This document shows, piece after piece, positions 1,521 through 64,000 of a DNA stretch of 64,000 bases; position 1 is the stretch's first letter; each line of letters begins with the position of its first letter. Position numbers and translations under genes: made by a program. Source of the stretch: Parcubacteria group bacterium GW2011_GWA1_40_21. Lineage in GTDB: Bacteria; Patescibacteriota; Minisyncoccia; Phycocordibacterales; GWA1-40-21. The stretch spans positions 1,969-65,968 of the forward strand of contig LBYO01000006.1 of the NCBI GenBank assembly GCA_000996205.1. Direction: 5' to 3'. Under the pieces are notes generated by a model that did no database searches, had not been told where the DNA came from, and saw only the letters and a program-made list of their open reading frames with translations.

Positions 1521-1699
1521 TTTCTTTTTCCTTAACCTACCACCTATCACCTACCACCTTCTGCCTGCTATTGCGTAAAAAATGGCTTAATATATAATAC
1601 TCGGAGGCTTAAGTCCTGCGGAAATCATTTTTTGCGGGATGAATTAAAAGAGTAAAATCGGGTCGATTCATTATTAAGTTTAAAATTTAAAAATAACAA

Positions 1700-11434: not shown

Positions 11435-11716
11435 CTATAGGCGTTTACTCGCTTTTTCATAAACGATTGACCTGTGTCCGATGTAGAATATTTTAACCTC
11501 TCGGCCTTCAATGCGATAAATTATACGATGATCGCCGACTCTTAATTTTCTGTATCCTTTCAGCGAGCGCCTAAGTGGCTTGCCGAACAATTCCGGACAA
11601 ACGGTCAGCTTTTCTCCAATGGCTTTTTTGATTTTATTTTTATCAAAATGGGATAATTTGGGAATATCTTTTTTCGCAACATCCGGGTGATAAACGATAT
11701 CAAAATTTACACCCAT
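11435..11716 (-). CDS. RelE/ParE-family type II toxin
   Basis: GYRKLRVGDHRIIYRIEG...IGHR pattern; overlaps upstream antitoxin ORF by 10 nt. Confidence 0.7.
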   Translation of the reverse strand: MGVNFDIVYHPDVAKKDIPKLSHFDKNKIKKAIGEKLTVCPELFGKPLRRSLKGYRKLRVGDHRIIYRIEGREVKIFYIGHRSIVYEKASKRL

Positions 11717-11928
11717 GCTTTTTTATTAGAAACGAATTTAACTTTTTCCTTATCTCTTTCTGACGCGATAATATCAAAAAATTCATCCTCTTCAGTTTCA
11801 ACTCCAATGCGAATAAGCTCCGCCGCCTTTGTGGCTTGCGGGACTTGATCTCTTTTTGCCAGTTTGGCAAGAATACTCTCCAATGGCGCCGAAAGGCTTA
11901 CATTCACTCTTTTCTTTGTTGTAGTCAT
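11707..11928 (-). CDS. Ribbon-helix-helix-type antitoxin
   Basis: 73-aa ORF with N-terminal RHH-like KRVNVSLSAPLESILAKLAKRD segment; translationally coupled to the toxin. Confidence 0.55.
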   Translation of the reverse strand: MTTTKKRVNVSLSAPLESILAKLAKRDQVPQATKAAELIRIGVETEEDEFFDIIASERDKEKVKFVSNKKAWV

Positions 11929-11982
11929 AACAATAATGTATCAAAAGTGTAACACCTGTGTCAATGGTCGCATAAACGCAGA

Positions 11983-12702
11983 TTAAAACATCGTCCACTC
12001 TATCGGCATTTGCCCAGTTTTAAAAAGATAATCGTTAGTTTTGGAGAAATGCTTAGAGCCGAAGAAGCCGGAGTTGGCGGAGTAGGGGGATGGGTGAGGG
12101 GCTTTTAGGACAAGGTGTTTTCTGGCATCTATCAGACTTTCTTTTTCTTGGGCGAATTTGCCCCAGAGAAGGAAAACGATATTTTCTCTTTTGTCGGAAA
12201 GCGCTTTGATGGCGGCGTTGGTAAGTTTTTCCCAGCCGAGATCGCGATGAGAGGCTGGCGAACTAGCGCGGACAGTAAGGATGGCGTTGAGCAATAAAAC
12301 ACCTTGCTTGGCCCAGCTTTCCAAATTGCCGTTTTTTGTTTTTGGCGGTTTAACCGCCAAGTCGCTTTCTATTTCTTTAAATATATTTACCAAAGACGGC
12401 GGGGGATTGACACCGTCCGGCACGGAAAAAGAAAGCCCATGCGCTTGCCCTTTGCCGTGATACGGATCTTGGCCCAGAATAACGACTTTGACTTTATCAA
12501 ACGGGGTGAGATTGAAAGCGTTGAAAATTTGCTTTGGCGGGGGATAAACAATAACGCCGGATTCCAATTCCTCCGCCAGCTTTTTCTTCAACTCCTTCAT
12601 ATACTCCGCGCCAAACTCTTCCATTAAAGCCTTTTTCCAGCCTTCTTCAATTTGGGGATTGAGCGTTGTTTCGGTGATCATAGCTATAAACAAGTTTAAC
12701 AT
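11983..12702 (-). CDS. ung: Uracil-DNA glycosylase
   Basis: VVILGQDPYHG...GQAHGLSFSV, HPSPYSA motifs. Confidence 0.9.
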   Translation of the reverse strand: MLNLFIAMITETTLNPQIEEGWKKALMEEFGAEYMKELKKKLAEELESGVIVYPPPKQIFNAFNLTPFDKVKVVILGQDPYHGKGQAHGLSFSVPDGVNPPPSLVNIFKEIESDLAVKPPKTKNGNLESWAKQGVLLLNAILTVRASSPASHRDLGWEKLTNAAIKALSDKRENIVFLLWGKFAQEKESLIDARKHLVLKAPHPSPYSANSGFFGSKHFSKTNDYLFKTGQMPIEWTMF

Positions 12703-12812
12703 TAAAAATACCAGATGTGCGCATCATATTATAAAAAGTTGACGAAGTAATAAAAGGCATATATTATTAATTAGAACTTTAAAAACCTTGATCTTTATTG
12801 AAAGGATATATT

Positions 12813-13103
12813 ATGGGTTTAGAACGATGCCTGTGGGAAATAATTGAGTCAAAAATGAGTTTACTGGGAGAAAAATGGGAAAATGTTACAAGAATTACTT
12901 TGTCAGAAGTTTCTCTTGCGGAGGCTTCCTGGCCAGAATCAAAAAGATATACCATTGCTGAATTTAAAAACTTCATTGAATCTGGCAAAAAAATTGCTTT
13001 TTACATATGGTGCAAGAATTTTCTTATCTATAAAGATAGAAATTTAAACCCCACACCCACAACCCCGCATCAATTATTCCATGTCCCATGGGTAACTTCT
13101 TAA
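12813..13103 (+). CDS. Hypothetical protein
   Basis: ORF with aaaggatat SD-like sequence; no domain recognised. Confidence 0.3.
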   Translation: MGLERCLWEIIESKMSLLGEKWENVTRITLSEVSLAEASWPESKRYTIAEFKNFIESGKKIAFYIWCKNFLIYKDRNLNPTPTTPHQLFHVPWVTS

Positions 13104-13201: not shown

Positions 13202-14128
13202 TCAGCTTCGACGGGTGCGGTGAAAATTTTTATGAACATCGCGGAGCTGTTTGTCCGTTACATGGGTGTAGATTTGGGTGGTGGCGATGTTGGAGTGGCC
13301 GAGGAGGGCTTGGACGGAGCGGATGTCGGCGCCGTTGCTTAATAAATCAGTGGCGAAGCAATGGCGGATGACATGAGGCGTGACTTTTTTGGAAATTCCG
13401 GCTTTGATAGCGTAATGTTTGACGATCCTTTCTATTGATCTTGGTGTCAGTCTTAGGTTGTAGGTTGTAGGTTGTAGGTTGTAGGGGGGGGTCCTAACAA
13501 ACAAGGCATCGTCCATATCTTTTCTTTTGTCCAAATAATTTTTTACTGCCGTTTTGGCTTCACTGGAAAGAAAAACAACCCTAATTTTTTCGCCTTTGCC
13601 TCTAATGGAAAATTCGTCCGACTTCAAACTGATGTCTCTTGGCAGGGAACAAAGTTCGGAAACACGTAAGCCTGTGGAAAAAAATAATTCTAAAATTGCT
13701 CTGTCTCTTAATCCCTTTAGCTCGCTAGTGTCTGGAGCATTCATCAGCCGATTAAGCTCCTCCGGCGTGATGAGGTCAAGCGACCTTTCTCCGATTTTCG
13801 CGAGCTCAATCCTCTCCGGAGGCAAAGTTTTAATACCCCGCTTTATCATATACTTCAGAAAAGAACGGAGGGCGATCAAATAATAATTCTGGGTATTTTT
13901 CTTAAGATTTTCCTTTCGGCCGTCAATTGTTTCCCCTGATTCTTGGCGATTCAGCCACAGTCTATATTCTCTCAAAACATCATCAGTAATGCCTTTCGGG
14001 TCATTGAGTTTTGAAAAGTCAAAAAATCTGCTCAAATACCTGTCATAGTTGGCGACAGTTTTGAGGCTTCTTCCTTTCTCAATTTCCAAATGCTCCAAAT
14101 ATTGCCGCTTTAATTGCTCTAGTGTCAT
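13202..14128 (-). CDS. Tyrosine recombinase XerC/XerD-like, with internal repeat insertion
   Basis: C-terminal HVIRHCFATDLL...LLGHSNIATTQIYTHV catalytic box; contains heptamer tandem repeat plus C8 tract at 13455-13491. Confidence 0.85.
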   Translation of the reverse strand: MTLEQLKRQYLEHLEIEKGRSLKTVANYDRYLSRFFDFSKLNDPKGITDDVLREYRLWLNRQESGETIDGRKENLKKNTQNYYLIALRSFLKYMIKRGIKTLPPERIELAKIGERSLDLITPEELNRLMNAPDTSELKGLRDRAILELFFSTGLRVSELCSLPRDISLKSDEFSIRGKGEKIRVVFLSSEAKTAVKNYLDKRKDMDDALFVRTPPYNLQPTTYNLRLTPRSIERIVKHYAIKAGISKKVTPHVIRHCFATDLLSNGADIRSVQALLGHSNIATTQIYTHVTDKQLRDVHKNFHRTRRS

Positions 14129-14351
14129 AAATGTGTAGCCACATTATACTACTGATTAGTTTACAGGTTCTAGTGAATAGGTGTTAACCAAAAGAAGATG
14201 ACAATAATTTTCAATTATCAATTTTCAGTTTTTATTGAATTTCCAATTTCTAAATTTTCAACCTAAAACCTAACCACTAGAAACTAAAACCTGTTTGAAC
14301 GACGAAATGACAATCGCCAGTCGTGCTGATATAATAACTATAATTAAGCAA

Positions 14352-14855
14352 ATGAGATCTTCACAAAAATTTTTAAATAAGTTCCACAAGTCCAAATCAA
14401 AGGGTTTCGGTCTTATTGAAATTATTATCGGGTCGGCAATTTTGACGGTTTCTCTCATCGCCATATCAACTTATTTTCAAAAATCACTCCAGCTAAGCCA
14501 AGACAGCGGTAAGACAGTGCAAGCCGGCTTTCTTTTGGAAGAAGGCGTGGAGGTCGTAAAATTTTTTCGCGACACAAGCTGGGTTAATATTTCCGGATTA
14601 ACGGCGGGGACTTCTTATTATCTCCAATTTGACGGGACAAAATGGGCGACGACTTCTTCCAATGTTTTTGTTGACGGAATTTTTGAGAGAAAATTTGTCG
14701 TAGACAATGTGTCCCGCGATGCGAATGACGACATCGTTTCCTCCGGCGGAACAAATGACGCAGACACCAAAAAAGCAACGGTTTCGGTTTCGTGGCTCGG
14801 AAGAAATGGCACCACGACCAAATCAATTTCAACTTATATAACAAATATTTTTTAA
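14352..14855 (+). CDS. Type IV pilin-like protein (prepilin N-terminal methylation motif)
   Basis: KGFGLIEIIIGSAILTV class III signal peptide. Confidence 0.6.
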   Translation: MRSSQKFLNKFHKSKSKGFGLIEIIIGSAILTVSLIAISTYFQKSLQLSQDSGKTVQAGFLLEEGVEVVKFFRDTSWVNISGLTAGTSYYLQFDGTKWATTSSNVFVDGIFERKFVVDNVSRDANDDIVSSGGTNDADTKKATVSVSWLGRNGTTTKSISTYITNIF

Positions 14856-14859
14856 GAAT

Positions 14860-15390
14860 ATGCCAAAACAAAAAACAAAGCCGAAATATTTTCAAAAAGG
14901 GTTTTCTCTTGCAGAGATGATAATATATGCCGCGATTTTAAGCATTCTGACTATTGTTACGATCAATTCAACATTTTCCATAGTAAGATCATTCGCTGAA
15001 TTCAGAACAGCCAGAGATTTGAATTCATCGGCGGCTTCTCTTTTGGAAAGAATGACGAGAGAGATCAGAGCGGCAAACGGCATTGATCTAATTCAGAGCG
15101 CTCTCGGCGCGAATCCGGGACGGCTCACTCTTTTAACCAAAGATGTGAGTGGCGCCGATACCACAGTGGAATTCTACGTTGAAAACAGCAAACTTAAAAT
15201 CAGGGAAGGCGGAGCGGCAATGGGGTCGCTCGTATCGAGCAGTACCGCTGTGACCAGTTTCATTGTTCGTTCTTTGTCAAATCCGAATTCAGGCGCGATA
15301 AAGACCGAGCTCGGACTGACCGCTACGCGAGGGGGAGTTTCAAAAAGCGGCAATTTTTACAGCACGATACTTCTTCGAGGAAGTTATTAA
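14860..15390 (+). CDS. Type IV pilin/pseudopilin-like protein
   Basis: QKGFSLAEMIIYAAILSILTI prepilin motif. Confidence 0.6.
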   Translation: MPKQKTKPKYFQKGFSLAEMIIYAAILSILTIVTINSTFSIVRSFAEFRTARDLNSSAASLLERMTREIRAANGIDLIQSALGANPGRLTLLTKDVSGADTTVEFYVENSKLKIREGGAAMGSLVSSSTAVTSFIVRSLSNPNSGAIKTELGLTATRGGVSKSGNFYSTILLRGSY

Positions 15391-15401
15391 ATAAAAAAAA
15401 T

Positions 15402-16712
15402 ATGCCATTCAAATTTAAAAAAGAATTTTATTCAAAAAAAATTAGTTCCGAAAAAGGGGCGGCTCTTTTGATAGCTGTTCTTTTTTTTCTAATTATTTCC
15501 GTGACTATCGTCGTCAGCTCCAGCGGTCCAGTTATTGCCGACAGGAAAGCGGCGCAGAATCTTATCAAGAGCAAAGCTTCTTATTTCGCTTCGGAAGCTG
15601 GAGTGGAAGATGTTTCTTATAGGATTATCAAATCAAAAAATTACGACAATGAAGAAACTTTGATTTTGGACGGATACACCGCTTCATCAGCCGTCATTGA
15701 CAGTGGTGACGACAAAGAAGTGACGACAACAGGCAATGTCTCTAATCACATTAGAAAAACCAAAACGAAATTGATTCCCGGCACAGGCGCATCTTTCCAT
15801 TACGGCGTTCAGGTCGGAAACGGCGGACTTATTATGTCCAACTTTTCGCGCGTTGACGGAAATGTTTTTTCCAACGGGCAAATCAGCGGATCCAACAGCA
15901 ACATCATCAATGGAGATGTGATCTCGGCGGGATCATCAGGGCTTATCACAGGCATTCATACCGCAGACTCCGCTTATGCGCATACGATTACAAACTCCAC
16001 TGTAGGAGAAGATGCTTATTATCAAACCACTTCAGGAACATCCGTCGAGGGAGCTTCCTATCCGGGCAGTCCAGATCAGTCAATCGCACCTATGCCCATC
16101 TCTGATACCAAAATAGAAGAGTGGAAAAGCGAGGCTCTGGCGGGAGGTGTTCATACCTCGCCTTGCCCTTATTCTGTAAGCGGAACTGTTTCCATCGGAC
16201 CAAAAAAAATAAATTGTGATCTTAACTTAGATGGCTCAGACGAGGTTACTCTAAATGGCAATGTTTGGGTTTCGGGAAATATTACTTTCAGCAATTCTGC
16301 CATTTTGAAAATCAATCCTTCTTTGGGCGATAAAACTGTGGTTATGGTGGCTGACAAAGAGTCAAACAGAAGCTCAAGCGGCACGATATCTTTAGCCAAC
16401 AGCTCTCAATTTTTCGGCACGGGAAGCGTCAAATCTTACATACTTCTTATCTCTCACAATAATAGCGCCGAAATGGGAGGAGGAAATTCTGCAATCAATG
16501 TGGCGAACAGCGCTAACGGCAAAGTCCTCTTATACGCGCCGCACGGCACGATTAATTTATCCAATAGCATAAGCGTTAAAGAAGCTTCCGCTTATAAAAT
16601 TCAATTAAATAATTCTGCCAGCGTCCTTTATGAAACAGGCATAGCTAATTTGCTTTTTACAGCTGGTCCTTCTGGAGGATATTCCATAGATAGTTGGCAG
16701 GAAACACAATAG
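15402..16712 (+). CDS. PilX-like minor pilin / pilus-associated large protein
   Basis: N-terminal hydrophobic anchor EKGAALLIAVLFFLIISV then Gly/Ser/Asn-rich extracellular beta-rich region; third gene of a tight operon with the two pilins. Confidence 0.45.
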   Translation: MPFKFKKEFYSKKISSEKGAALLIAVLFFLIISVTIVVSSSGPVIADRKAAQNLIKSKASYFASEAGVEDVSYRIIKSKNYDNEETLILDGYTASSAVIDSGDDKEVTTTGNVSNHIRKTKTKLIPGTGASFHYGVQVGNGGLIMSNFSRVDGNVFSNGQISGSNSNIINGDVISAGSSGLITGIHTADSAYAHTITNSTVGEDAYYQTTSGTSVEGASYPGSPDQSIAPMPISDTKIEEWKSEALAGGVHTSPCPYSVSGTVSIGPKKINCDLNLDGSDEVTLNGNVWVSGNITFSNSAILKINPSLGDKTVVMVADKESNRSSSGTISLANSSQFFGTGSVKSYILLISHNNSAEMGGGNSAINVANSANGKVLLYAPHGTINLSNSISVKEASAYKIQLNNSASVLYETGIANLLFTAGPSGGYSIDSWQETQ

Positions 16713-16751
16713 CCCAAAACTCGAAGACTGTCGTATGTTAAGATATAACAA

Positions 16752-17516
16752 ATGAAAAAAATTATTATCGCGAATTGGAAAATGAATCCATCTTCCGCCA
16801 AAGAGGCGGAGCGGATTTTGAATGGAGTGAAAAAGACGGCCGTAAGGCTGAAAAAGACGCAAGTAGTAATTTGTCCGCCTTTTATTTATTTGAATAATCT
16901 GAAAAAAATTATCGGGAAGTCGGCAAATTTGTCATTAGGCGCGCAAAACGCGTTTTGGGAAGTTGAAGGAGCTTTCACGGGGGAAGTGAGTCCGGAGATG
17001 ATAAGAAATTACGGCGGTTCCTATGTGATTTTGGGCCACTCCGAGAGACGAGCTCTCGGCGAAACTGATGAAATAGTGAGTAAAAAGACATTAACTTGCT
17101 TAAAAACCGGATTAAAAACAGTCGTGTGCATTGGAGAAAAAATTCGCGATGAGCAAGGTGATTATTTGGTTTTCTTGAGAGACGAAATTCGCAACTCGCT
17201 TAATAAAATTCAGAAAAAATTCTTGAAAAGCGTAATAATCGCCTATGAACCGATCTGGGCGATAGGCAAGAAAGATACGGAAGCTATGAGTCCCGCGGAT
17301 ATTCACGAAATGGCTATTTATATAAAAAAGATTTTGTCTGAAATCTACGGACAAGAAAGCGCTCTTGCCGTGCCGATTCTATACGGAGGCTCAGTGGGAG
17401 GAGGGAATGCTGGAAACATAATTAAAAGCGGGGGAGTGGATGGTTTACTCGTCGGACATCAGAGCCTTAAGCCGGAAAACTTCAGTGAAATACTGATGTC
17501 GGCGGAAAACTTTTAA
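16752..17516 (+). CDS. tpiA: Triosephosphate isomerase
   Basis: ANWKMN, AYEPIWAIGTG-like, GGSV motifs. Confidence 0.9.
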   Translation: MKKIIIANWKMNPSSAKEAERILNGVKKTAVRLKKTQVVICPPFIYLNNLKKIIGKSANLSLGAQNAFWEVEGAFTGEVSPEMIRNYGGSYVILGHSERRALGETDEIVSKKTLTCLKTGLKTVVCIGEKIRDEQGDYLVFLRDEIRNSLNKIQKKFLKSVIIAYEPIWAIGKKDTEAMSPADIHEMAIYIKKILSEIYGQESALAVPILYGGSVGGGNAGNIIKSGGVDGLLVGHQSLKPENFSEILMSAENF

Positions 17517-41040: not shown

Positions 41041-41092
41041 TATAAATTTAGCTTCTTTTCCTAAAACCTACAACCTAACACCTAATTAAACT

Positions 41093-41629
41093 ATGTCAGT
41101 CATCAAACACAAAGAACAAAGAGTCGGTATTTTTATTGATACTCAAAATCTCTACCACAGTTCCAAAAATCTATATAATGCTAAAGTGAACTTCGGTCAA
41201 ATCGTCAAAGATGCTCTGGCGGGAAGACGGCTGGTGCGCGCGGTGGCTTATGTCATCACCACCGAAAGTGGCGAGGAGAAAAGCTTTTTTGAAGCGCTGG
41301 AAAAAGTCGGGATTGAAACGAAGACGAAAAACCTCCAGATTTTTGCCGGTGGCGCAAAAAAGGCGGATTGGGATGTCGGACTTGCTGTTGATGCGATAAA
41401 GCTCGCTCCAAAACTTGATACGGTGATCATAATTTCCGGCGACGGAGACTTTATCCCGCTCGTGGAATATCTTCAAGTTAATGAAGGATGTCAGGTGGAA
41501 GTTATCGCTTTTGGAAAATCTGCATCAGCCAAACTCAAAGAAGCCGCCGATGATTTCATAGACCTAGACCAAAATGCCAGAAAATATCTTATGGGCTTCG
41601 GCGGGGGAAGGGAGAGGGGGAGGAAATAG
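41093..41629 (+). CDS. NYN-domain (LabA-like/PIN-like) protein
   Basis: RVGIFIDTQNLYH...DVGLAVDAI...IIISGDGDF NYN signature. Confidence 0.7.
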   Translation: MSVIKHKEQRVGIFIDTQNLYHSSKNLYNAKVNFGQIVKDALAGRRLVRAVAYVITTESGEEKSFFEALEKVGIETKTKNLQIFAGGAKKADWDVGLAVDAIKLAPKLDTVIIISGDGDFIPLVEYLQVNEGCQVEVIAFGKSASAKLKEAADDFIDLDQNARKYLMGFGGGRERGRK

Positions 41630-46154: not shown

Positions 46155-46263
46155 TAAAGAAGCCATCGCGGAATAAATTTCTAATTTCTAATCAAATTCA
46201 AATTTCTTAAACCTACAACCTACTACCTAAAACCTACAACCTTCTTCGCGCGTCTAGTATATT

Positions 46264-47634
46264 CCAATCCCCTAATGTCCCCTGAAATCACTTTTCGGTA
46301 ATGATGGGTTTTTTAATATTTTTTTCTAATTTTAACTTTGCTTTCTGCATTTCCTCCGCGAAATCATTGTCGCTCTTAGCATACGCAATTTCATCAAGCA
46401 TTGCAAAAGTAACACCTTCCTTCAAGTACTGTTCCGCTTTTTCCAAAGACTTGAAATTCTCATAGGGAACAAATGTTTGGTCGTACTTCTTCCTGATCTT
46501 TCCTCGCTTGTCCGTGTAATTCGTTGCGTATAAACAGACACGATGATAATTGAGGTAAACATTAAAATAATCGGCATAGAATTCATTGATGGCTCCCGCG
46601 CTACTTTTATTAATAAAGTTTCGTCCCATATGTTTGCGAATAACCGAACCGTTTTTTCCTTCAACAAGCGCATTGTCGGTACTCTTCCTCGATCTGCTTT
46701 TTGTTTGTTTAATCAAGAGTCGCGCCAATATTCTTTCCACTACTTGATTAATATATTCGCTGCCATTGTCAGAATGAAAGTTGATGATGACAAAAGGAAA
46801 CATCGAGAGGAGCATTTCAAGCAAGGGCTTCATATATTCATCAGTAATCTGCGGTACGCAACCAACCAGTTCCCATTGAGTGACTTCATCCACTAGATTG
46901 ATGTGATATACACCTTTATCGCCGTCCAAATCTCCCTGATGCACCGAATCTACCCTTATGTAGCCCGGTTTCCCGTAAGGTACGGGTTTCTTCCTTTCCC
47001 CGATATTCGCATTCACTGGGTTTGTTTTTGAGTATTTAATTGCTTCTGAAGAAAGATACTGTCGGTTGTTCTTCCTTAAGTTGTAAATATGCGACACTGA
47101 AATTTTTGCAATATTCGCATATGCTTCTTTCCCAAAAGTTACGAACTCTCTGACGAGCGTTTGTTTTACGGAACGGCCATTGGGGGTCTTGTGCGCGACA
47201 TCAGTCTTGATGAGCAACGCTATGTCTTCCGGTTTGTAAATACGAACCGAAGCGCCGAATGTCTTCCTCTTCACAAAATACAAGCCATCCTTTTTCCATT
47301 TTTTGATTAACCGTTTCATCTGCTTCTGCTCGTACCCCGTCACTTTTTCAAGAAACATTTTTACTGTTCCTTTGTCTTTCTTGCTCAGCTGTTGGTACCC
47401 AACGCTAACTAAAGACGCGCGTATCAATGTGTATTTTTCTTCTCGAGATTCCACATCAAACTCCATATGACGGCTTCCTTCCAAAAACTTCTTCATTTCC
47501 TCCACTTTTGTTATTTGTATGTTTTTCATAATAATCATAAGCACCATTATGAAAAGTCCCTCTTGTAACGCAACACCTTTCAGGGGACATTAGCGTTAAA
47601 ACGGGATACCGTTTCAGGGGACATTAGGGATTGG
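46264..47634 (-). mobile_element. Insertion sequence with DDE transposase and roughly 23-bp terminal inverted repeats
   Basis: Left ccaatcccctaatgtcccctgaaa / right tttcaggggacattagggattgg; extra subterminal copy of tttcaggggacattag at 47571. Confidence 0.8.
46288..47547 (-). CDS. DDE-type transposase (integrase-core/rve fold)
   Basis: HSDNGSEY, DDE spacing, N-terminal HTH. Confidence 0.85.
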   Translation of the reverse strand: MVLMIIMKNIQITKVEEMKKFLEGSRHMEFDVESREEKYTLIRASLVSVGYQQLSKKDKGTVKMFLEKVTGYEQKQMKRLIKKWKKDGLYFVKRKTFGASVRIYKPEDIALLIKTDVAHKTPNGRSVKQTLVREFVTFGKEAYANIAKISVSHIYNLRKNNRQYLSSEAIKYSKTNPVNANIGERKKPVPYGKPGYIRVDSVHQGDLDGDKGVYHINLVDEVTQWELVGCVPQITDEYMKPLLEMLLSMFPFVIINFHSDNGSEYINQVVERILARLLIKQTKSRSRKSTDNALVEGKNGSVIRKHMGRNFINKSSAGAINEFYADYFNVYLNYHRVCLYATNYTDKRGKIRKKYDQTFVPYENFKSLEKAEQYLKEGVTFAMLDEIAYAKSDNDFAEEMQKAKLKLEKNIKKPIITEK

Positions 47635-52180: not shown

Positions 52181-52263
52181 TTTTGGCGGTGGAGAATATT
52201 TCTGTTTCCTACAACCTACCACCTAAAACCTACAACCTTCTTCTTGTGTGGTATAGTTTTCCG

Positions 52264-54273
52264 ATGGATTATTTAAAAGACCTGAATGAGAAACAAAAAG
52301 AAACTGTTTTGCATAAAGACGGTCCGCTTCTTATTCTTGCAGGAGCAGGCTCGGGGAAGACGAAAACGATTACTCACAGAATTTTCCATCTTGTGAGCGA
52401 AGGTGTTTCTCCTCGCCAAATTTTGGCAATCACTTTTACCAACAAAGCGGCGAAAGAAATGAGGGAGAGGGTGCTTGATTTGCTTAAAAAACTTCCAGGA
52501 GCTTTGCCGGCTATCCAAGTTGGCGCGAACAACGAAATCAGTAAAAATTTCCAATTTCCAATTTCCAATTTCCAAAAAGATGAAATCCCGTTCGTAAGCA
52601 CTTTTCATTCTCTGGGCGTCCGGATTATCAAAGAAAATTCCAAAGAGCTTGGAATTCCTCGCCATTTTACTATTTTTGACAAAGGAGATTCGCTGAAAGC
52701 CGTTAAAGAAATACTGAAAGAGCTGGACATTGATTCCAAGCAATTTGAACCGTCAAAAATTTTGGGAATAATTTCCAGGGAAAAAGGCGCTCTGACAACC
52801 GCCGAGAATTATTTAGAAAAAGCGGGCGCTTTCAAGGGCTACTCTCTGAACAAAGTGGTATCCGATGTTTGGACGCTTTATGAAAAAAGATTGGGGCAAG
52901 AGAAATCTCTGGATTTTGATGACCTTTTGCTGAAGACATACCGACTTCTTCGCAAAAGCAAGGAAATTTTGGATTATTACCAAAATTTATGGCAATACAT
53001 TCACATTGACGAATATCAGGACACGAACAAAGCTCAATATGAAATAATAAAACTTCTTGCGGCAAAAAACAGGAACATCTGCGCCGTCGGCGACATTGAT
53101 CAGAATATCTACAGCTGGAGAGGCGCTGACATCCAAAATATTCTGAATTTTGAAAAAGATTATCCCGAGGCGAAAGCAGTAATTTTGGAGGAAAATTATC
53201 GCTCAACCCAGACGATACTCGCGGTGGCGAACGGCATCATAGAGAAGAACACAATGCGAAGAAAGAAAAATTTGTTCACCAAAAATCAAGAGGGCGACAA
53301 GGTGACTCTATTTGAAGCTCATAATGAAAACGAAGAGGCGCGCTTCATCGCGGAGAAAGTCAAACGACTTATCGCGGACGGAGTCGCCCCAAAAGAAATC
53401 GCCATTCTTTACAGGGCCAATTTTCAATCCAGAGTCATTGAAGAAGCTTTTTTAACTCTCAATCTTCCTTATCAGCTTCTCGGCGTCAAATTTTTTGAGA
53501 GAAAAGAAGTTAAAGACACGCTTTCTTATCTGCGCGCCGCGCTAAACAGAGACAGCTTGAGCGACATCAAAAGGGTGATAAATTTTCCGACGAGAGGGCT
53601 GGGAAAAGTGACGCTCGCCAAGGTATTCGCCGGCAGAGAGGCGGAACTGCCAGCCGGAACCAAAGCTAAGGTGGCGAATTTTTACGGTCTTTTGGATAAA
53701 ATAAAAGAAAATGTTTTATCCTTAAAACCTTCGGAGCTTGTGCGGTTTATTGTCAAAGAAAGCGGGATTGAAACTGAACTGAAAGACGGAAGCGATGACG
53801 ACAAAGAAAGACTGGAAAACATAATGGAACTCGCTACTATGGCGAAGAAATACGATTATCTGCCGTACGGAGAAGGTGTTGAAAAGCTGATTGAAGAATC
53901 GGCTTTGTCTACCGACCAAGACTCTCTTGAAAAAGAAAGCGGAGCGGTCAAAATGATGACTGTTCACGCTTCAAAAGGTCTTGAATTTGATTATATTTTC
54001 ATTTCCGGTCTTGAAGAAGATCTTTTCCCGCACCAAAGAATCGGTGGCGGCGCGAAAAGCATTGAGGACTCGGAGGAAGAACGGCGCTTGTTTTATGTCG
54101 CCATAACGAGAGCCAAGAAAAAACTTTTTCTTTCTTACGCGAGGTCAAGAACGATTTTCGGCTCGCTTCAGATCAACAGTCCGTCCCAATTTATCTCCGA
54201 CATAGAACCTGAATTTCTGGAGGAAGAAAAAAGTTTTGAGTATCGAGAAAAAATAATTTATATGGATTTGTGA
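52264..54273 (+). CDS. pcrA: ATP-dependent DNA helicase PcrA/UvrD-family, with in-frame heptamer-repeat insertion
   Basis: GAGSGKT Walker A, TFHS, DEYQDTN, VGDIDQNIYSWRGA, TVHASKGLEFD, VAITRAK motifs; start moved to Met at 52264 (track ORF start overlaps repeat array). Confidence 0.9.
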   Translation: MDYLKDLNEKQKETVLHKDGPLLILAGAGSGKTKTITHRIFHLVSEGVSPRQILAITFTNKAAKEMRERVLDLLKKLPGALPAIQVGANNEISKNFQFPISNFQKDEIPFVSTFHSLGVRIIKENSKELGIPRHFTIFDKGDSLKAVKEILKELDIDSKQFEPSKILGIISREKGALTTAENYLEKAGAFKGYSLNKVVSDVWTLYEKRLGQEKSLDFDDLLLKTYRLLRKSKEILDYYQNLWQYIHIDEYQDTNKAQYEIIKLLAAKNRNICAVGDIDQNIYSWRGADIQNILNFEKDYPEAKAVILEENYRSTQTILAVANGIIEKNTMRRKKNLFTKNQEGDKVTLFEAHNENEEARFIAEKVKRLIADGVAPKEIAILYRANFQSRVIEEAFLTLNLPYQLLGVKFFERKEVKDTLSYLRAALNRDSLSDIKRVINFPTRGLGKVTLAKVFAGREAELPAGTKAKVANFYGLLDKIKENVLSLKPSELVRFIVKESGIETELKDGSDDDKERLENIMELATMAKKYDYLPYGEGVEKLIEESALSTDQDSLEKESGAVKMMTVHASKGLEFDYIFISGLEEDLFPHQRIGGGAKSIEDSEEERRLFYVAITRAKKKLFLSYARSRTIFGSLQINSPSQFISDIEPEFLEEEKSFEYREKIIYMDL

Positions 54274-54355
54274 TACGAAGAAGGTTGTAGGCGTTAGGTT
54301 GTAGGTTGTAGGTTGTAGGAAGAAAAAGTCAAAGTCATTTCTAAAAATAAATATT

Positions 54356-55249
54356 ATGAACAACTTTTCAAATTTAAAAGCTAAAAAATCGCTCGGGCAA
54401 AATTTTTTGAAATCAAAAAATGCCATTTTTGCGATGATTAAAGCAGGAGATGTGAGTGAGAATGATATCGTGCTGGAAGCCGGTCCGGGCAAAGGCGTCC
54501 TCACGGAAGAATTGCTCAAAAAAGCCGGCAAGGTCATTGCCGTTGAAAAAGACGATATGCTGGTAGAATTCCTCCGCGATAAATTTAAACTAGAAATAGA
54601 AAGTGGGAAACTAGAACTCGTTCACGGCGACATCTTGGAGTTTAATCCCGCAACCTACCACCTACCACCTACCACCTACAACCTTCCCCTCACAACCTAC
54701 AACCTTCAACCTACAACCTTCCCCTCACAACCTACAACCTTCAAACTTATCGCCAACATCCCTTATCACATCACCGGCCAATTTTTAAGAAAATTTCTGT
54801 CCGGCGACATTCAGCCTTCCAAAATGGTGATTCTCCTTCAAAAAGAAGTGATGGAAAGAATTATGGCGAATGACGGCAAAGAAAGCATACTTTCCATAAG
54901 CGTAAAAGCTTATGGCCGACCGAAAAATATCGGCAAAGTTTCCAAAGAAAACTTTTCTCCGAAGCCAAAAGTTGACTCGGCGATACTTCTCATAGACAAT
55001 ATCTCGCGCGATTTTTTCACTTCGTCTGTCCAAAATAACGAAGATAAATTTTTCCAGATTGTTAAAGCCGGTTTTGCTCACAAAAGAAAAATGCTGGCTG
55101 GAAACTTAGAACATTCCAAGGACTCCCTTTGGAAAGGGAGAAACCGAGAGGAAATTGAAAAGATTTTTGAAACTTGCAAAATACCGCCGAAATCCAGAGC
55201 GGAGGATATAAAACTGGAACAGTGGAAGCGCTTAAGTTCCATGCTTTAA
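54356..55249 (+). CDS. rsmA: 16S rRNA adenine dimethyltransferase RsmA/KsgA with roughly 30-aa repeat-encoded insertion
   Basis: LGQNFL, EAGPGKGVLT SAM motif, NIPYHIT; insertion 54649-54745. Confidence 0.9.
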   Translation: MNNFSNLKAKKSLGQNFLKSKNAIFAMIKAGDVSENDIVLEAGPGKGVLTEELLKKAGKVIAVEKDDMLVEFLRDKFKLEIESGKLELVHGDILEFNPATYHLPPTTYNLPLTTYNLQPTTFPSQPTTFKLIANIPYHITGQFLRKFLSGDIQPSKMVILLQKEVMERIMANDGKESILSISVKAYGRPKNIGKVSKENFSPKPKVDSAILLIDNISRDFFTSSVQNNEDKFFQIVKAGFAHKRKMLAGNLEHSKDSLWKGRNREEIEKIFETCKIPPKSRAEDIKLEQWKRLSSML

Positions 55250-55386: not shown

Positions 55387-55785
55387 TTAAGGCAAACCTG
55401 TTCCGACTTTATTCATAAGACCATAATTCGGCATAAGAACACAGGCTGTGCCCACATACTGCCAACAAACTTGAGGAGCCGCGGGAACATAGGAGCCTAA
55501 ATGCCAAGTGGCTGGAATGCCAATTGCAAAATCGCCATACAGAGTAGTATAGCCCGGCTGATAAACAAGAGCGCCGGTCTTAGGCAAAGGCAACGGAGAT
55601 AAAGGAGCAAACCATATCCATAAATTAGCGCTGCAAGTGCAAGGCAATGTAAAAATAACAAACCCGCCGAAAGGTAGCCCTGGCACCGCAGTCCCCGCTC
55701 CAATAGCAAACAAATTAACAGGTATTACCCACAGAAGAATCATTAATAAAATCAAAAATTTTTTCGTAAAAAAATTATATATCAT
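55387..55785 (-). CDS. Hypothetical secreted/membrane Cys-containing small protein
   Basis: N-terminal hydrophobic signal; Pro/Gly-rich. Confidence 0.4.
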   Translation of the reverse strand: MIYNFFTKKFLILLMILLWVIPVNLFAIGAGTAVPGLPFGGFVIFTLPCTCSANLWIWFAPLSPLPLPKTGALVYQPGYTTLYGDFAIGIPATWHLGSYVPAAPQVCWQYVGTACVLMPNYGLMNKVGTGLP

Positions 55786-56906
55786 TAAAATTTAATTTTA
55801 AAACTCGCTGGTTCTTTATTATAACCGTTCTCGTTCACAACATAAAACGAAACCTCTATCGGCATATTTTTCGCGCTTTTTTCGTTATTCATTTTTGCCA
55901 TTTGTTGCATTGCTGACGCTTTGAATTTTAGAGTTTTGCCGTCAAGCGAGGGTATATTCATTATGTTTCCGAACATTGAATATATGCTGTTTCCGCTTGC
56001 AGTAAAGCCTTTGCCTGAAACCGTTATTTCACTGTCAATGGTCGCCTCCGATGGCTCAACTTTTCCCACAACAGGCCTTTCTGACGGACTGTCCGTGACC
56101 TCAATATATATTTTTATGGTTTCGCTTTTACTGTTTCCGTTCCCGTTTGTCACCCAAATGCTGTATTCCCCGAGTGTCAAATCTTTCGGAACAATAAATG
56201 ATATTTTGGTTCCATTTTCACTGGCGGAAAGATCAGGAACGGAATTATTTTCCCCAAGATGAACAGTGTTTGATTTCGGGGTAAATCCTTCTCCTTCCAA
56301 AATGACAGTTTTGCCGGGCGACACTTGATACTCCGAAGTGGAGTAAGCTCTGACAATAGTGGAATTTTCAGATGAAGATGAAGAACTTTTTACCACTGAC
56401 AATTTTTTGGCTTCTGAACTATTGCTTTTGCTTGAATTCTGACTAGACTGGCTGGATTTTGAAGAATATTTTGACAAAGAACTGCTATTCGCGACAACAG
56501 ATTTTGAGGAGCTTTTGTTGTCGGCTTCCAGTAAATAATTCAGCTTTAACCGCGTTGCCACACCCACAAAACCCGTGCCTGATTTTAGCCCGAATGACTG
56601 CAAAACATCAGAAGCGTACATTTCTTGAAATTTTATAACCGCATTCTTGGTTAGTTGGCCGAAATAAGCGGTTTCATTGCCAGAAGATCCAGTGCCAGAA
56701 GAAGAAATTTTCGTAGCAGGATTTTTGTTTAAAAATTTCTGCAAAAATCTAACATCTTCATTATTATCCCCGATTTTAAGGTCTTTGTTAAAAATTTTAA
56801 CACCCTCTTCCGCTGAAACAAGCTGGAGTTCAAAAGCAAAAAGCTCCAGAGAAAAAAGAAGTGGGAAAATTAAGCCTAAAAACAAAAATTTTTTATAATT
56901 ATGCAC
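55785..56906 (-). CDS. Secreted protein with peptidoglycan-binding-like domain, Ser-rich linker and C-terminal Ig-like domains
   Basis: Signal peptide; LKIGDNNEDVRFLQKFLN...TAYFGQLTKNAVIKFQ PG_binding_1-like; poly-Ser linker. Confidence 0.5.
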   Translation of the reverse strand: MHNYKKFLFLGLIFPLLFSLELFAFELQLVSAEEGVKIFNKDLKIGDNNEDVRFLQKFLNKNPATKISSSGTGSSGNETAYFGQLTKNAVIKFQEMYASDVLQSFGLKSGTGFVGVATRLKLNYLLEADNKSSSKSVVANSSSLSKYSSKSSQSSQNSSKSNSSEAKKLSVVKSSSSSSENSTIVRAYSTSEYQVSPGKTVILEGEGFTPKSNTVHLGENNSVPDLSASENGTKISFIVPKDLTLGEYSIWVTNGNGNSKSETIKIYIEVTDSPSERPVVGKVEPSEATIDSEITVSGKGFTASGNSIYSMFGNIMNIPSLDGKTLKFKASAMQQMAKMNNEKSAKNMPIEVSFYVVNENGYNKEPASFKIKF

Positions 56907-57061: not shown

Positions 57062-58024
57062 TTGAAATCGCGATCTAAAAAAATAATTTTATTATTTTTG
57101 ACTTTTTCCGCGCTGGGAGGGGTTTCTTTTCTGTTGCTCAAACCTAAAAAAGAAGTGGCGACAAAGGTCGTGTCGGAAGTCAAAGTGATAAAAAATCCGG
57201 TGGAAGTTTTAGATATTGATTCCGATGCCGACGGGCTGAAAGATTGGGAAGAAACCTTGTGGAAGCTTGACCCAAAGAATCCCGACACGGACGGCAATGG
57301 CATACCGGACGCGGAAGAAGTCAAAAAGAAAATGGCGGAGATTGACTCAAAGGGCGAAATGGAAAGTTCAGGCGATGGCGCCGCGGAAAGCGAATCCTAC
57401 ACGACCGATACGGAAACGGATGTTTTAAGCAAGAAGCTTTTTGCCGAATATATAAATTTGAAACAATCGGGAAATTTCAACGAGGAGGCGGTGATAGCCA
57501 CAGTGAACAACTTGGTAGCCGAAGAAATTCAAAACAAAAAAGATACTCAGTATTATTTTCTAAAAAATATAAAAACTTTTTCCCCCGAAAACAAAACACT
57601 GTTAAAGTCTTACGGAAATTCTTTCGCTTCAATCCGAACCAAATACAAAAATCAGTATATTCAAAACCCATTGGTGAAAGAAGGAGGGGTTGCCAATTTG
57701 CTTGATCCGGAATTTCTTCAGGGATTGGTCAGAACTTCAGAAGTTTACAGAAATATGGCCGTAGAATTGTCAAAAATCGCGGCACCGAAAGGCCTGACTG
57801 ATACTCATTTGGAAATTCTGAATAATTATATGGCGAGCTCGGACGGACTCAAGGAATTAAGCGCGCTATCAACTGATCCTGTCTTGGGAATGATAGGGAC
57901 ACAGAGGCACATTGAAGCCGAAGGAAAAGAAAAAAACTTGTTAAGCGATGTGGCTGAATATCTGTCTGAAAACGGCATAATTTTCTCCGGAAACGAAGCC
58001 GGAAATATGTGGAACAATATATGA
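57062..58024 (+). CDS. Hypothetical secreted protein with Asp-rich calcium-binding-like repeats
   Basis: Signal anchor; DSDADGLKDWEE...DPKNPDTDGNGIPD. Confidence 0.45.
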   Translation: MKSRSKKIILLFLTFSALGGVSFLLLKPKKEVATKVVSEVKVIKNPVEVLDIDSDADGLKDWEETLWKLDPKNPDTDGNGIPDAEEVKKKMAEIDSKGEMESSGDGAAESESYTTDTETDVLSKKLFAEYINLKQSGNFNEEAVIATVNNLVAEEIQNKKDTQYYFLKNIKTFSPENKTLLKSYGNSFASIRTKYKNQYIQNPLVKEGGVANLLDPEFLQGLVRTSEVYRNMAVELSKIAAPKGLTDTHLEILNNYMASSDGLKELSALSTDPVLGMIGTQRHIEAEGKEKNLLSDVAEYLSENGIIFSGNEAGNMWNNI

Positions 58025-60174
58025 ATTTCTTTTTTAAAAACAAAAAAACACTTTCTTGTCTCTTAATCGTTCCGATTATAATATCTTTGGCTTTTTCATC
58101 TTTGGCGGTAACAAAAGTTTACGCCATTGATACTGTTCCACCCGTCCCCGTTTCGGACGATGCTTTGAGGTCAAAATTCGTCGGGGTGACGGTGATGGGC
58201 TATACCGTGCCGGGCTTCAGCTGGAACGGAATTTACAATCTAGTGATGAAAACATTGCTCGCCCAGATCACGGACAGCATAGTCAATTGGATAAACAGCG
58301 GTTTTGAAGGGAGTCCTTCATTTGTCACCGACCCGAAAAGTTTTCTCGTTGATGTCGGAGATGAAGTGGTGGGAGAGTTTATAGATGAAATGACTTCATT
58401 TGGCTGGCTTTGCGATCCGTACAGATTAAATATTAAAATCGCGCTGTCTTTGGGAATAGGCAATTTTAAACGGCAGAGAAAATGTACTTTGACTGGAATT
58501 ATTAAAAATTTTGATAATTTCGTTAATGGCACTTTCAAGGAAGGCGGATGGAAAGGCTGGTTTTATCTGACCACTAATCCAAACGCAAATCCCGGGACCG
58601 CTTTCTTGAGTATGCAGGCCGAACTTCAAAAAAGAATGCAACAAAAGAATGATTTGGAGGTTAAGAAGCTGGACTGGGGCAGGGGTTTTCTATCGTGGAG
58701 AACATGCGAGCAGTATGCCACAAAAACTTCCGCGCCGTCTGATGCCGGTCCTGGCCTTGAGTATACTGACCAAACCGATAAGAAGGATAAGTCCAATGAG
58801 AACCAAACTTGCACGAAATATAGCGACATAAAGACACCCGGCACGGTCATTGAAAGCCAGCTTGAACACACGCTTGGCACAAGCTTGAGGCAATTGGAGC
58901 TGGCTGATGATATAGACAAAATAGTCGGCGCACTTGTCCAGCAATTGGTAAAAACGGTTCTTACGAAAGGCTTGTCCAGTATGAATTCATCGGAAGGGTG
59001 GGAAGGCACATCAAGCGACCTTGAAGAAGAGAGCTCAAATACGAAAATAACCGGAACTTGCTCGGCTGACACCAGATCGGCCCTCACGGGAGAAACGGTT
59101 GAATGGACGGTTTATGCTGTAGGAGGTCCGTCTGGTAAAAGCCCTGAATACAAGTGGAATGGAGCTGAAATCAGCACGAATACTAAAACTGAAAAACGCA
59201 CATTAAGCATTGCTTATGATAGCGCTGGAACAAAGAAAGCGCGGGTAACAGTCAAAAAAGGCAATAAGAGCGCGACTATAAAATGCAGCGGTTCAGTCAA
59301 AGTTTCCGCCGGAGATGATTCTGATGTTGCTTCGGGAACTAACGGCTATTGTTCCGCCAACAAATCGGCGATCAAGACGGGCGGCAGTGTCCAGTGGAAA
59401 TGGACACCATACTCGTCCGACGGCTCTTACGACAGCGCCACTTACGAATGGAAGGATGAAAATGGAAACGCGATTGAGGATGCCGGTAGCGCCAAATCAG
59501 TCACCATCGCTTACTTTGAAACGGGGGAAAAGTCAACCAATGTGACAGTCACCAATGACGGAGCGAGTTCCGATTATGATTGCGGGGCGGTTGATGTTTC
59601 AGGCGAGGAAGAATCTTCATCGTCTTCAGAATCTTCAGAGATAACGGCTGATTCTTGCTCAGTAGATAAAACAGCCGCTCTGGTAAATCAAACAGTCAAA
59701 TGGAGCGCTGAATTGGCGGATAGCGGTGAAAGCGCTACTTATAATTGGCTTTCGGATGACACAGACGGTCCGTCTGGCGACACAAAATCAGTTGAAATCG
59801 GCTACACAACCGCCGGGACCAAATCAGCGAGCGTTGAAATAACAAAAGGCGACACGACAACCACGGTGTCTTGCTCAAATTCGGTTGAAATAACAAACAC
59901 CAAATTGTCCGCTTCGTGCAGTGTTGATCTTACGGCTGGAACCGTTGACACCGGAAATAACGACGGCACGGAATTCACTTGGACGGCGACGGCCTCCGGC
60001 TGGACTGGCGACTACGGCTATAGCTGGTCGGGAACGGACGGTCTTGTCGGAAGCGGAGACACGAATACGACAACATACACAGAAGCGGGAAATAAAACAG
60101 CCCGAGTGACAGTCACTTCTGGCGATGAAAGTGTCACGGTAAACTGCGGCACGGCTCGGGTGTTTTCAGAGTAA
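58009..60174 (+). CDS. Large secreted protein with four tandem Cys-bracketed Ig/PKD-like repeats (T4SS-locus surface protein candidate)
   Basis: Signal peptide; four roughly 85-aa repeats each beginning CS.. and ending ..C. Confidence 0.5.
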   Translation: MEQYMNFFFKNKKTLSCLLIVPIIISLAFSSLAVTKVYAIDTVPPVPVSDDALRSKFVGVTVMGYTVPGFSWNGIYNLVMKTLLAQITDSIVNWINSGFEGSPSFVTDPKSFLVDVGDEVVGEFIDEMTSFGWLCDPYRLNIKIALSLGIGNFKRQRKCTLTGIIKNFDNFVNGTFKEGGWKGWFYLTTNPNANPGTAFLSMQAELQKRMQQKNDLEVKKLDWGRGFLSWRTCEQYATKTSAPSDAGPGLEYTDQTDKKDKSNENQTCTKYSDIKTPGTVIESQLEHTLGTSLRQLELADDIDKIVGALVQQLVKTVLTKGLSSMNSSEGWEGTSSDLEEESSNTKITGTCSADTRSALTGETVEWTVYAVGGPSGKSPEYKWNGAEISTNTKTEKRTLSIAYDSAGTKKARVTVKKGNKSATIKCSGSVKVSAGDDSDVASGTNGYCSANKSAIKTGGSVQWKWTPYSSDGSYDSATYEWKDENGNAIEDAGSAKSVTIAYFETGEKSTNVTVTNDGASSDYDCGAVDVSGEEESSSSSESSEITADSCSVDKTAALVNQTVKWSAELADSGESATYNWLSDDTDGPSGDTKSVEIGYTTAGTKSASVEITKGDTTTTVSCSNSVEITNTKLSASCSVDLTAGTVDTGNNDGTEFTWTATASGWTGDYGYSWSGTDGLVGSGDTNTTTYTEAGNKTARVTVTSGDESVTVNCGTARVFSE

Positions 60175-63303: not shown

Positions 63304-63738
63304 ATGAAATTCCAAGTCCCGCAATTTATTGAAATAGAAGACAAGATATTCGGGCCTTTGACCTTGAAGCAATTTATTTACCTTGCCGGAGGGGGCGGAA
63401 TTTCTTTCGTCATTTATTCCATAATTCCTTACCTTGTCATAGCTTTATTTTTCATCATACCGGTTATGCTTTTCTCTGTTGCTTTGGCTTTCTATAAGAT
63501 AAATGGCAAGCCGTTCATATTCATTCTTGAGTCGGCCGTGAAATACACTTTGAGCAACAAACTTTATCTGTGGCAAAAAAGAGAAAAAGTTATAACAAAA
63601 AAAGACAGCATTTCCAACGACAACTCATCCCTCCTCAAAGTACCTAAACTGTCAGAAAGCAAGCTCAAAGATTTAACTTGGAGTTTAGATATAAATGAAA
63701 ATATCAATCCGATTACGAGAGATAGTAAAAGGTTATAG
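63304..63738 (+). CDS. PrgI-family (VirB3-like) small membrane protein
   Basis: FGPLTLKQFIYLAGGGGISFVIYSIIPYLVIALFFIIPVMLFSVALAFYKINGKPF matches PrgI family pattern. Confidence 0.55.
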   Translation: MKFQVPQFIEIEDKIFGPLTLKQFIYLAGGGGISFVIYSIIPYLVIALFFIIPVMLFSVALAFYKINGKPFIFILESAVKYTLSNKLYLWQKREKVITKKDSISNDNSSLLKVPKLSESKLKDLTWSLDINENINPITRDSKRL

Positions 63739-63904
63739 GTGCTAGGCGTTAGGTTTTAGGGGTTAGGAAAGAAAAGATAAGATTGGGAATATAAAAAATA
63801 TGTTATAATTTTTAAAAGTTGCAGGTTGCTGTTTTACAACTTTCTTCACTCTCGCCCTAAAACCTAACACCTATAACCTTCTTAAAAACCTACAACCTAA
63901 AAAA

Positions 63905-64000
63905 ATGCCAACCAAATCAAAAGCAACACAGGATTTCGTGCCGATCAAAGAGGTGAGGGACGGCATTGTTATCTTGAAAAACAATTCAATGCGGGCAATC
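63905..64000 (+). CDS. VirB4/PrgJ-like conjugal transfer ATPase (N-terminal fragment, truncated by window end)
   Basis: MPTKSKATQDFVPIKEVRDGIVILKNNSMRAI is the characteristic VirB4/TraE N-terminal box; follows PrgI-like gene as in Gram-positive-type T4SS. Confidence 0.5.
   Translation, partial: MPTKSKATQDFVPIKEVRDGIVILKNNSMRAI

Follow-up and report, generated by a model that had tools for sequence, protein, structure and literature searches.

The window analysed here, a 64,000-nucleotide stretch of Parcubacteria DNA whose own numbering is used throughout, carries a gene for a Xer-type tyrosine recombinase (xer) that contains, at about two-thirds of its length, four perfect copies of a heptamer beside a run of eight cytosines. 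The tract is probably best explained as a microsatellite constrained by the reading frame and evolving in concert, similar to the STRRs (short tandemly repeated repetitive sequences) of cyanobacteria, which belongs to a genome-wide family of 7-nt arrays and is tolerated in a permissive loop of the recombinase. An earlier note on this DNA had proposed that the tract is a contingency site at which slippage switches the recombinase on and off. The proposed switch is not supported, and what emerged unexpectedly is the array family itself, its in-frame colonisation of housekeeping proteins, and the swapping of arrays at a single loop. The gene and the two parts of its tract are:

13202–14128, minus strand: Xer-type tyrosine recombinase gene, 308 aa / 927 nt, recognised from its open reading frame (ORF), its Pfam, NCBIfam and PDB matches, and its catalytic residues
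13455–13482, minus strand: four perfect heptamer units, AGGTTGT on the plus strand (ACAACCT/TACAACC on the coding strand), encoding Y216–L225
13484–13491, minus strand: C8 on the coding strand (G8 on the plus strand), encoding part of T213-P214-P215

The coordinates, the perfect units and the encoded peptide given in the earlier note were all reproduced. Tandem Repeats Finder reports the array as 13454–13485, period 7, with 4.6 copies and 100% matches; the base between the array and G8 is an A (13483), and the last two C of C8 are shared with the first CCTACAA unit. The coding strand reads ACC CCC CCC TAC AAC CTA CAA CCT ACA ACC TAC AAC CTA AGA, and the tract, C8-T-(ACAACCT)x4, encodes TPPYNLQPTTYNL (residues T213 P P Y N L Q P T T Y N L R226). 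It occupies nucleotides 638–673 of the 927, at 69% of the gene and not near its 5′ end. The homopolymer alone is only mildly unusual, since about 0.27 G/C runs of at least 8 are expected per 64 kb and two are observed (13484 and 5070). In the ACAACCT orientation the array is open in all three frames, always encoding cyclic permutations of LQPTTYN, whereas the opposite orientation carries TAG in every frame, and this accounts for the orientation of the arrays inside coding regions.

The annotation of the Rifle groundwater metagenome-assembled genome Parcubacteria group bacterium GW2011_GWA1_40_21 includes the identical protein, whose C-terminal catalytic domain matches Phage_integrase (PF00589) at E = 1.1e-44 over residues 120–293 (profile positions 3–171 of 172), and its N-terminal SAM-like core-binding domain matches PF02899 at 1.6e-10, with PF13102 and PF13495 matching too. 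The residues R155, K178, H252, R255, H278 and Y287 are all intact, and are invariant across an alignment of 83 sequences. The product resembles XerC, XerD and XerA in domain architecture and in its R-K-H-R-H-Y set, with strong matches to XerD and XerA (E. coli XerD 1a0p at 8e-39 in the PDB search, in which archaeal XerA also matches). Unlike XerC and XerD, it falls below both equivalog cutoffs (TIGR02225 for XerD, 247.3 versus 329.6; TIGR02224 for XerC, 234.6 versus 335.15) and passes only the model for XerA-type site-specific tyrosine recombinases (NF040815, 233.3 versus a cutoff of 220). Unlike all three, it has a loop before the H-x-x-R helix that is encoded by a heptamer microsatellite.

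This loop (residues ~213–226) follows a strand that ends in ...ALFV and leads into the helix TPRSIERIVKHYA, the one ahead of the catalytic H-x-x-R motif. In the orthologue alignment it corresponds to a hypervariable stretch of 10–17 aa between the invariant F210 and R226-L227, and in the AlphaFold2 model residues 202–228 are coil, followed by a helix at 229–242, with a predicted confidence (pLDDT) of 65 for the block 211–220 versus a mean of 82. The best reading is that the tract encodes a flexible surface loop, hypervariable in Parcubacteria Xer proteins, that would tolerate almost any sequence. The earlier note took the tract to be an insert replacing a normally short segment; Parcubacteria orthologues speak otherwise, having a loop of similar length at this place (e.g. 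TANPNSEKVQKSKT), and the loop is only about 8 aa longer than its counterpart in E. coli XerD. Neither strand shows a promoter-like or terminator-like site beside the intragenic array, the C8-plus-array segment is unstructured (minimum free energy 0 kcal/mol), and the only Rfam families over the window are four tRNAs, with no match at the array.

The consequences of a change in length are readily computed. With C7 or three units, translation stops at the TAA that ends the array, giving products of 222–224 aa, and with C9 or five units the products are 260–262 aa; every ±1 change in the array or in C8 loses H252, R255, H278 and Y287. The claim that length changes would turn the recombinase off therefore stands for the predicted products, all of them truncated before H252...Y287, but no such variant was seen at xer. 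Metagenome and genome scans did not bring up the source population itself, and close relatives were gathered by exact-protein look-ups. The exact xer protein is on 14 contigs; the 927-nt gene is 100% identical in nine of the nine loci read, from different samples and assemblers, even though some of these strains differ by up to 7% in the adjoining pilin-like genes. A second set of contigs was anchored on the neighbouring uracil-DNA glycosylase (UDG) gene, which avoids selecting for an intact xer, and all of its members that reach the tract, among the loci listed, call the intact 308-aa protein (DNA was read at five of these loci, three of them already among the nine). Eight predicted variant products (C6, C7, C9 and C10; 1, 3, 5 and 7 units) were looked up exactly in a collection of 15 billion proteins and none was present; the same look-up finds the wild-type xer product and, as a positive control, both fragments of a frameshifted pcrA described below. 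A 235-aa "variant" in the Xer cluster (P0257) proved to be a fragment from a sequencing read, its last residues (DRKSTRLNS) translated from Illumina adapter, and not a truncation allele.

The length is also fixed across species. Seven distinct 308-aa orthologues, from nine loci of 78–86% nucleotide identity, have four units at the same position; L170 and L172/173 have perfect units, the others units with 1–5 substitutions, still in frame. In these orthologues the C-run is C6, C5 or interrupted, the positions of C8 reading ATTCCCCCC, ATTTCCCCC, ATCTCCTCC and similar; because they differ there by substitution and with the total length unchanged, C8 itself arose by substitution in the lineage of the window. 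The sole indels in the xer clade are in-frame GC-rich inserts of 21 nt (L090, L091) and 39 nt (L010). The earlier note had itself named uniform read support for one length, together with identical sequence across strains, as an argument for a fixed insertion rather than phase variation, and at the level of assemblies this is what was found, in that the contigs are identical, the predicted variants are absent, and the orthologues keep four units.

The pattern of substitution within the array is unlike that in the rest of the gene. Over all pairs of orthologues there are 14 synonymous differences in the ten array codons versus 86 expected from the rest of the gene, and in six of seven comparisons with the window there are none at all where about three are expected in each; third positions in the array are variable at 3 of 9 sites versus 74% gene-wide (all of these figures are indicative only, for reasons given below). 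Non-synonymous changes do occur. Depletion of synonymous change is the opposite of what constraint at the protein level would produce, and fits homogenisation of the units or selection on the DNA itself. The array can also be replaced as a whole. In L198 and L199 the same loop is encoded by (NAGCTAN)x4, giving KLTANSYKL, and in L011 and L105 by a degenerate AAATTCC-like run, and the loop types of close relatives interleave in the identity matrix. More distant Parcubacteria have still other heptamers at this place (AGATTAA x4 in L096, GTCAAAG x4.4 in L100), and among 121 orthologue loops a self-match of at least 0.6 is reached by period 7 only.

GC-rich inserts are a further feature of these sites. 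In relatives they break up heptamer arrays or this Xer loop, namely in the xer genes of L010, L090/L091 and L080 and in KsgA of P0124/P0129; the xer cases, of 21–39 nt and in frame, were read as DNA, and those in KsgA were seen as protein sequence only. A CCCGCCCGCC motif or the peptide YPPAT...GRG is common to several of the inserts, and hairpins are formed by the L010 insert and the L080 loop (z = -2.5 and -6.3). The inserts may represent a small palindromic element that targets these sites.

Two other genes in the window contain heptamer arrays in frame:

52546–52575, plus strand: AATTTCC x4.3, in frame in a loop (NFQFPISNFQ) of the pcrA/uvrD-like helicase, between motif Ia and the TFH motif
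54651–54744, plus strand: 13.4 imperfect CAACCTA units, in frame in a loop (ATYHLPPTTYNLPLTTYNLQPTTFPSQPTTF) of KsgA/RsmA, between GDIL.F and IANIPY

For pcrA we compared contigs anchored on the array-free gene at 55785–56906. One of these (L193; ERZ27254732 k141_221749) is the same as the window over 8,332 nt except that a single AATTTCC unit is missing at 52546–52552, a loss that frameshifts pcrA into ORFs of 133 and 503 aa. This is direct evidence of slippage in such arrays, and the earlier note's view of the xer tract as a slippage substrate, being a non-triplet repeat next to a homopolymer, is borne out to that extent. The xer tract has only four units plus C8, and the 4.3-unit pcrA array varies by one unit in one of about seven spanning contigs. 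The 19-aa PcrA loop that holds the array is present in a relative at 95% identity and absent in relatives at 90%. The KsgA loop varies among relatives (P0122–P0147) in steps of 7 aa, corresponding to 21 nt or three heptamers, in a series from NTYNLQPTTYKL up to the form in the window, which is 21 aa longer. More distant KsgA relatives have SYKLTANSYKL in this loop, as an (AGCTAMM)n array would encode.

Two related contigs show other changes in this region. LBYE01000004.1 (GW2011_GWC1_40_13; L188/P0266) has an in-frame 30-nt deletion in the helicase gene (window 52409–52438) that costs the protein PRQILAITFT, a part of motif Ia. Two different inactivations of the helicase may thus exist in the population, or this deletion may be an assembly error. 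In L192 the segment 54275–54410, which comprises an intergenic array and the start of ksgA, is replaced by divergent sequence with its own degenerate array, and this contig is either a recombinant strain or a chimera.

The coding arrays belong to a larger set. Among periods of 4–12, only period 7 has several near-perfect arrays of at least three copies in the window (five; the others have 0–1), and there are ten (CCTANNN)n arrays in the 64 kb versus none in each of 100 second-order Markov simulations. Three of the ten are coding (xer, ksgA, and one at the edge of the pcrA leader and ORF) and the rest are intergenic. Three families of unit are seen: NACCTAN (ACCTA), AGCTA/TAGCTTT, and AATTTC. 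The arrays outside the genes described above, together with the promoter-like element of xer, are:

1535–1559, plus strand: ACCTA-type array, intergenic, from Tandem Repeats Finder and a motif scan
14143–14151, minus strand: -10-like element TAGTATAAT, conserved, 14 nt upstream of the start codon (ATG) of xer
14158–14186, minus strand: degenerate ACCTA-type array directly upstream of the xer -10-like element
41060–41083, plus strand: ACCTA-type array, its end 9 nt ahead of the ATG at 41093
46210–46242, plus strand: ACCTA-type array, intergenic, preceded by AATTTCT units
52208–52238, plus strand: ACCTA-type array upstream of the pcrA start, ending ...ACAACCTTCTTC, then TGGTATAGT
54282–54319, minus strand: ACCTA-type array, intergenic, just past the pcrA stop codon, inverted partner of 52208–52243
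63730–63767, minus strand: ACCTA-type array, intergenic, inverted partner of 63856–63880
63856–63900, plus strand: ACCTA-type array in a leader, its end a few nt short of the ATG at 63906

The intergenic arrays often end in ...ACAACCTTCTTC and are closely followed by a -10-like element or by a start codon. Upstream of xer the motif AGTAGTATAAT is kept in eight orthologue loci, and the relatives L011, L105 and L174 have ACCTA arrays at the same site before TAGTATAAT. The array at 14158–14186 is mirrored by one at 14264–14292 on the plus strand, ahead of the divergent pilin-like gene, the two forming an inverted pair of 29 nt with 76% complementarity; both divergent gene fronts between xer and the pilin-like gene carry an array, and the pair is simply these two fronts, each with its own. 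A more extensive inverted pair, 52208–52243 and 54277–54312 (36 nt, 92% complementary), brackets the whole of pcrA from its 5′ leader to beyond its stop codon, and similar pairs occur at 63729/63856 and 54280/54641. We considered whether the segments between inverted arrays (52208/54277, 63729/63856, 14158/14264) are invertible and rejected this, as no inversion is present in about 30 related contigs.

Similar arrays turn up sporadically elsewhere. ACAACCT arrays are found in unrelated viral contigs of IMG/VR and in Bacteroidota (Antarcticibacterium P0249 and P0250). In the viral contig L201/L205 the array is about 20 nt upstream of TGTGTATAAT, and in L206 and L207 TTGACA and (AAATTTC)n come after it, an arrangement that echoes the composite of AATTTC and ACCTA units at 14206–14292 and 46176–46242 in the window. 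The viral contigs give only eight exact matches to a 24-nt array, and we see no sign of a phage origin. A survey for the peptide (YNLQPTT)x6 returned just 14 short and probably spurious ORFs over intergenic arrays, some of them in Bacteroidota, and is uninformative about protein families.

In the account that we favour, in which the xer tract is a tolerated member of this array family, the array would arise and turn over through slipped-strand mispairing or through conversion. Selection on the recombinase would let through only net changes of zero or ±3 units, 7 being no multiple of 3, and four units would be kept; turnover of the units would keep them alike, and another heptamer family could take the place of a whole array. 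A null recombinase would result from a ±1 slip in the array or in C8, and such a slip would be a mutational liability that is purged rather than a switch that is selected. Single-unit or single-C slips probably do occur at xer, with no sign of their maintenance. Several points weigh against this account. Selection on the nucleotide sequence, as for a cis-acting element, could lie behind the scarcity of synonymous change instead of neutral homogenisation, and a purely neutral model does not obviously predict that heptamer arrays should recur at one loop in several lineages. The array statistics are indicative only, because the orthologues are phylogenetically non-independent and the array measures just 28 nt. 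In different assemblies four short contigs (L182, L184, L186 and L187) end within the 3′ part of xer, 27–140 nt from the array, at window positions 13314–13428; this could reflect local heterogeneity or, an equally good cause, k-mers in the catalytic region shared with co-occurring relatives. Finally, the evidence is at the level of assemblies, with which length heterogeneity at low frequency in xer is compatible.

That the array and C8 are instead kept as a hypermutable tract, reversibly switching the recombinase in subpopulations as the earlier note proposed, now appears distinctly unlikely. A non-triplet repeat beside C8, at which every ±1 change truncates the product ahead of H252...Y287, is what such a switch would look like; in one assembly the 4.3-unit sibling array has lost a unit, with a frameshift, the window, L170 and L172 have perfect units although the rest of the gene diverges by 15%, and heptamer arrays recur at the loop in several lineages. 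However, no length variant of xer was found in the contigs examined or in the protein collection, four units are kept across species, with many degraded orthologue arrays remaining in frame, and C8 is lineage-specific and came about by substitution. The heptanucleotide simple sequence repeats (SSRs) of H. influenzae that have been proposed as phase-variable mostly have 7–38 units, in numbers that differ between strains (PMC2651432), compared to four here, and in phase-variable species SSRs are concentrated near N-termini (PMC3315296), whereas this tract is well inside the gene. The same arrays are found in the housekeeping genes ksgA and pcrA and many are intergenic, and from what is generally known of XerC and XerD, switching off a chromosome-dimer resolvase would presumably bring no evident benefit. 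The switch keeps some probability because the evidence is at assembly level and a sibling array does slip. An artefact of assembly or sequencing has a practically negligible chance of being the explanation: repeats and homopolymers are error-prone and four contigs break nearby, but independent assemblies, made with different assemblers and coming from different samples and archives, give the identical sequence, on which ground we reject it, and the tract is conserved in other species.

It is also unlikely that the array acts at the nucleic-acid level, as a factor-binding site or as a promoter or untranslated-region module, with the xer peptide being incidental. Relatives swap the array for other unit families or for non-repeat sequence while the rest of the gene is unchanged, the intragenic array is unstructured, without an Rfam match and not flanked by a promoter-like site on either strand, and several arrays are antisense to genes or downstream of them. 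In favour of such a role are the conserved synonymous sites inside the xer array, the orientation of intergenic arrays with the downstream gene just before -10-like elements or starts (xer, pilin-like, pcrA, 41093 and 63906), the retention in relatives of the array position upstream of the xer -10 element, and the placement of the viral arrays noted above; the sample, of 10 arrays, is small. Selection of the peptide YNLQPTTYNL as protein, for example as a partner-binding or DNA-contacting loop of which the DNA repeat would be a by-product, is very improbable. Loop length is roughly kept and the peptide is conserved in about ten orthologues, yet changes in the array are mostly non-synonymous with synonymous ones depleted, close relatives have unrelated peptides at this position (KLTANSYKL, NPNSEKVQKSKT), and model confidence in the loop is low. 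A more elaborate scheme is possible, if doubtful, in which the arrays form a dedicated system: oriented arrays of three interchangeable families would serve as promoter or leader modules, colonise permissive loops of Xer, PcrA and KsgA, proteins of DNA and RNA maintenance, be homogenised or swapped by an active mechanism working in a 7-nt register, and yield frameshift-null alleles of xer and pcrA at appreciable frequency, which could switch genome stability at the level of populations.

Among known systems the STRR sequences of cyanobacteria are, beside contingency SSRs, the closest analogue, with 7-nt tandem units in several families per genome that are dispersed and mostly intergenic, and that are also tolerated inside genes at permissive loops; Vioque (1997, cited in PMC2858038) reportedly described an STRR inside the RNase P RNA gene of heterocyst-forming cyanobacteria. 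Unlike the STRR sequences of heterocystous cyanobacteria, the arrays of the window have other unit sequences and occur in another phylum (Parcubacteria, in the candidate phyla radiation, CPR), such that they are an analogue and not a member of that group; they also differ in being read in frame in xer, ksgA and pcrA, with frame-constrained length, three-unit steps, and swapping of families at one site. Contingency SSRs, such as the tetra- and heptanucleotide repeats of H. influenzae and the poly-G tracts of Campylobacter, share with the xer tract a non-triplet repeat or homopolymer within an ORF at which slippage shifts the frame, but the xer tract has four units at 69% of the gene and is invariant both in the population, as represented by assemblies, and across species. 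In-frame coding minisatellites of bacteria (variable-number tandem repeats) likewise encode length-polymorphic, low-complexity surface segments, as with the 7-aa steps of the KsgA loop; here, in contrast, the DNA repeats with a unit of 7 nt, no multiple of 3, such that it takes three of these to make one in-frame unit and a slip by one of them shifts the frame. We found no description of heptamer arrays or of SSR phase variation in CPR/Patescibacteria in the literature searched.

If the account of a tolerated array family is correct, then what the window holds is not a new phase-variable recombinase but an abundant and evolutionarily active set of 7-nt tandem arrays in an uncultured CPR lineage, arrays that are written into protein-coding loops, evolve in concert, can be exchanged between unit families at one site, and by single-unit slippage occasionally knock out genes. 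It would extend the STRR phenomenon beyond cyanobacteria and provide a natural system for the evolution of frame-constrained microsatellites. It would also be a warning to annotators that low-complexity loops of the 'YNLQPTT' type and split genes in CPR genomes can be repeat-driven.

The surroundings of xer vary among close relatives. The pilin-like cluster beside it (14295–16950), whose products have N-terminal methylation motifs, is strain-variable, with divergence of up to ~7% and indels (L004, L007, L008), and xer and its upstream arrays are identical where this cluster varies. The genes directly downstream of xer (11435–13103 in the window) also vary (L170, L171, L174, L176), and include HepT-like, AbiEii and AAA_14/DUF4143 genes and one for a 96-aa protein of unknown function, with ParE-type toxin-antitoxin genes also close by. 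This suggests that a variable islet of defence and toxin-antitoxin genes adjoins xer. Between convergent genes at 46243–46320, the array at 46210–46242 is followed by a -10-like TAGTATATT and then a short stretch ending in GGGTTTTTT, which could be a small transcript, although it has no Rfam match. In a gene for a 721-aa PKD-like protein (58009–60174), about 230 nt (59116–59347) are replaced in L190 by about 100 nt of different sequence, and this may be a variable segment of a surface protein.

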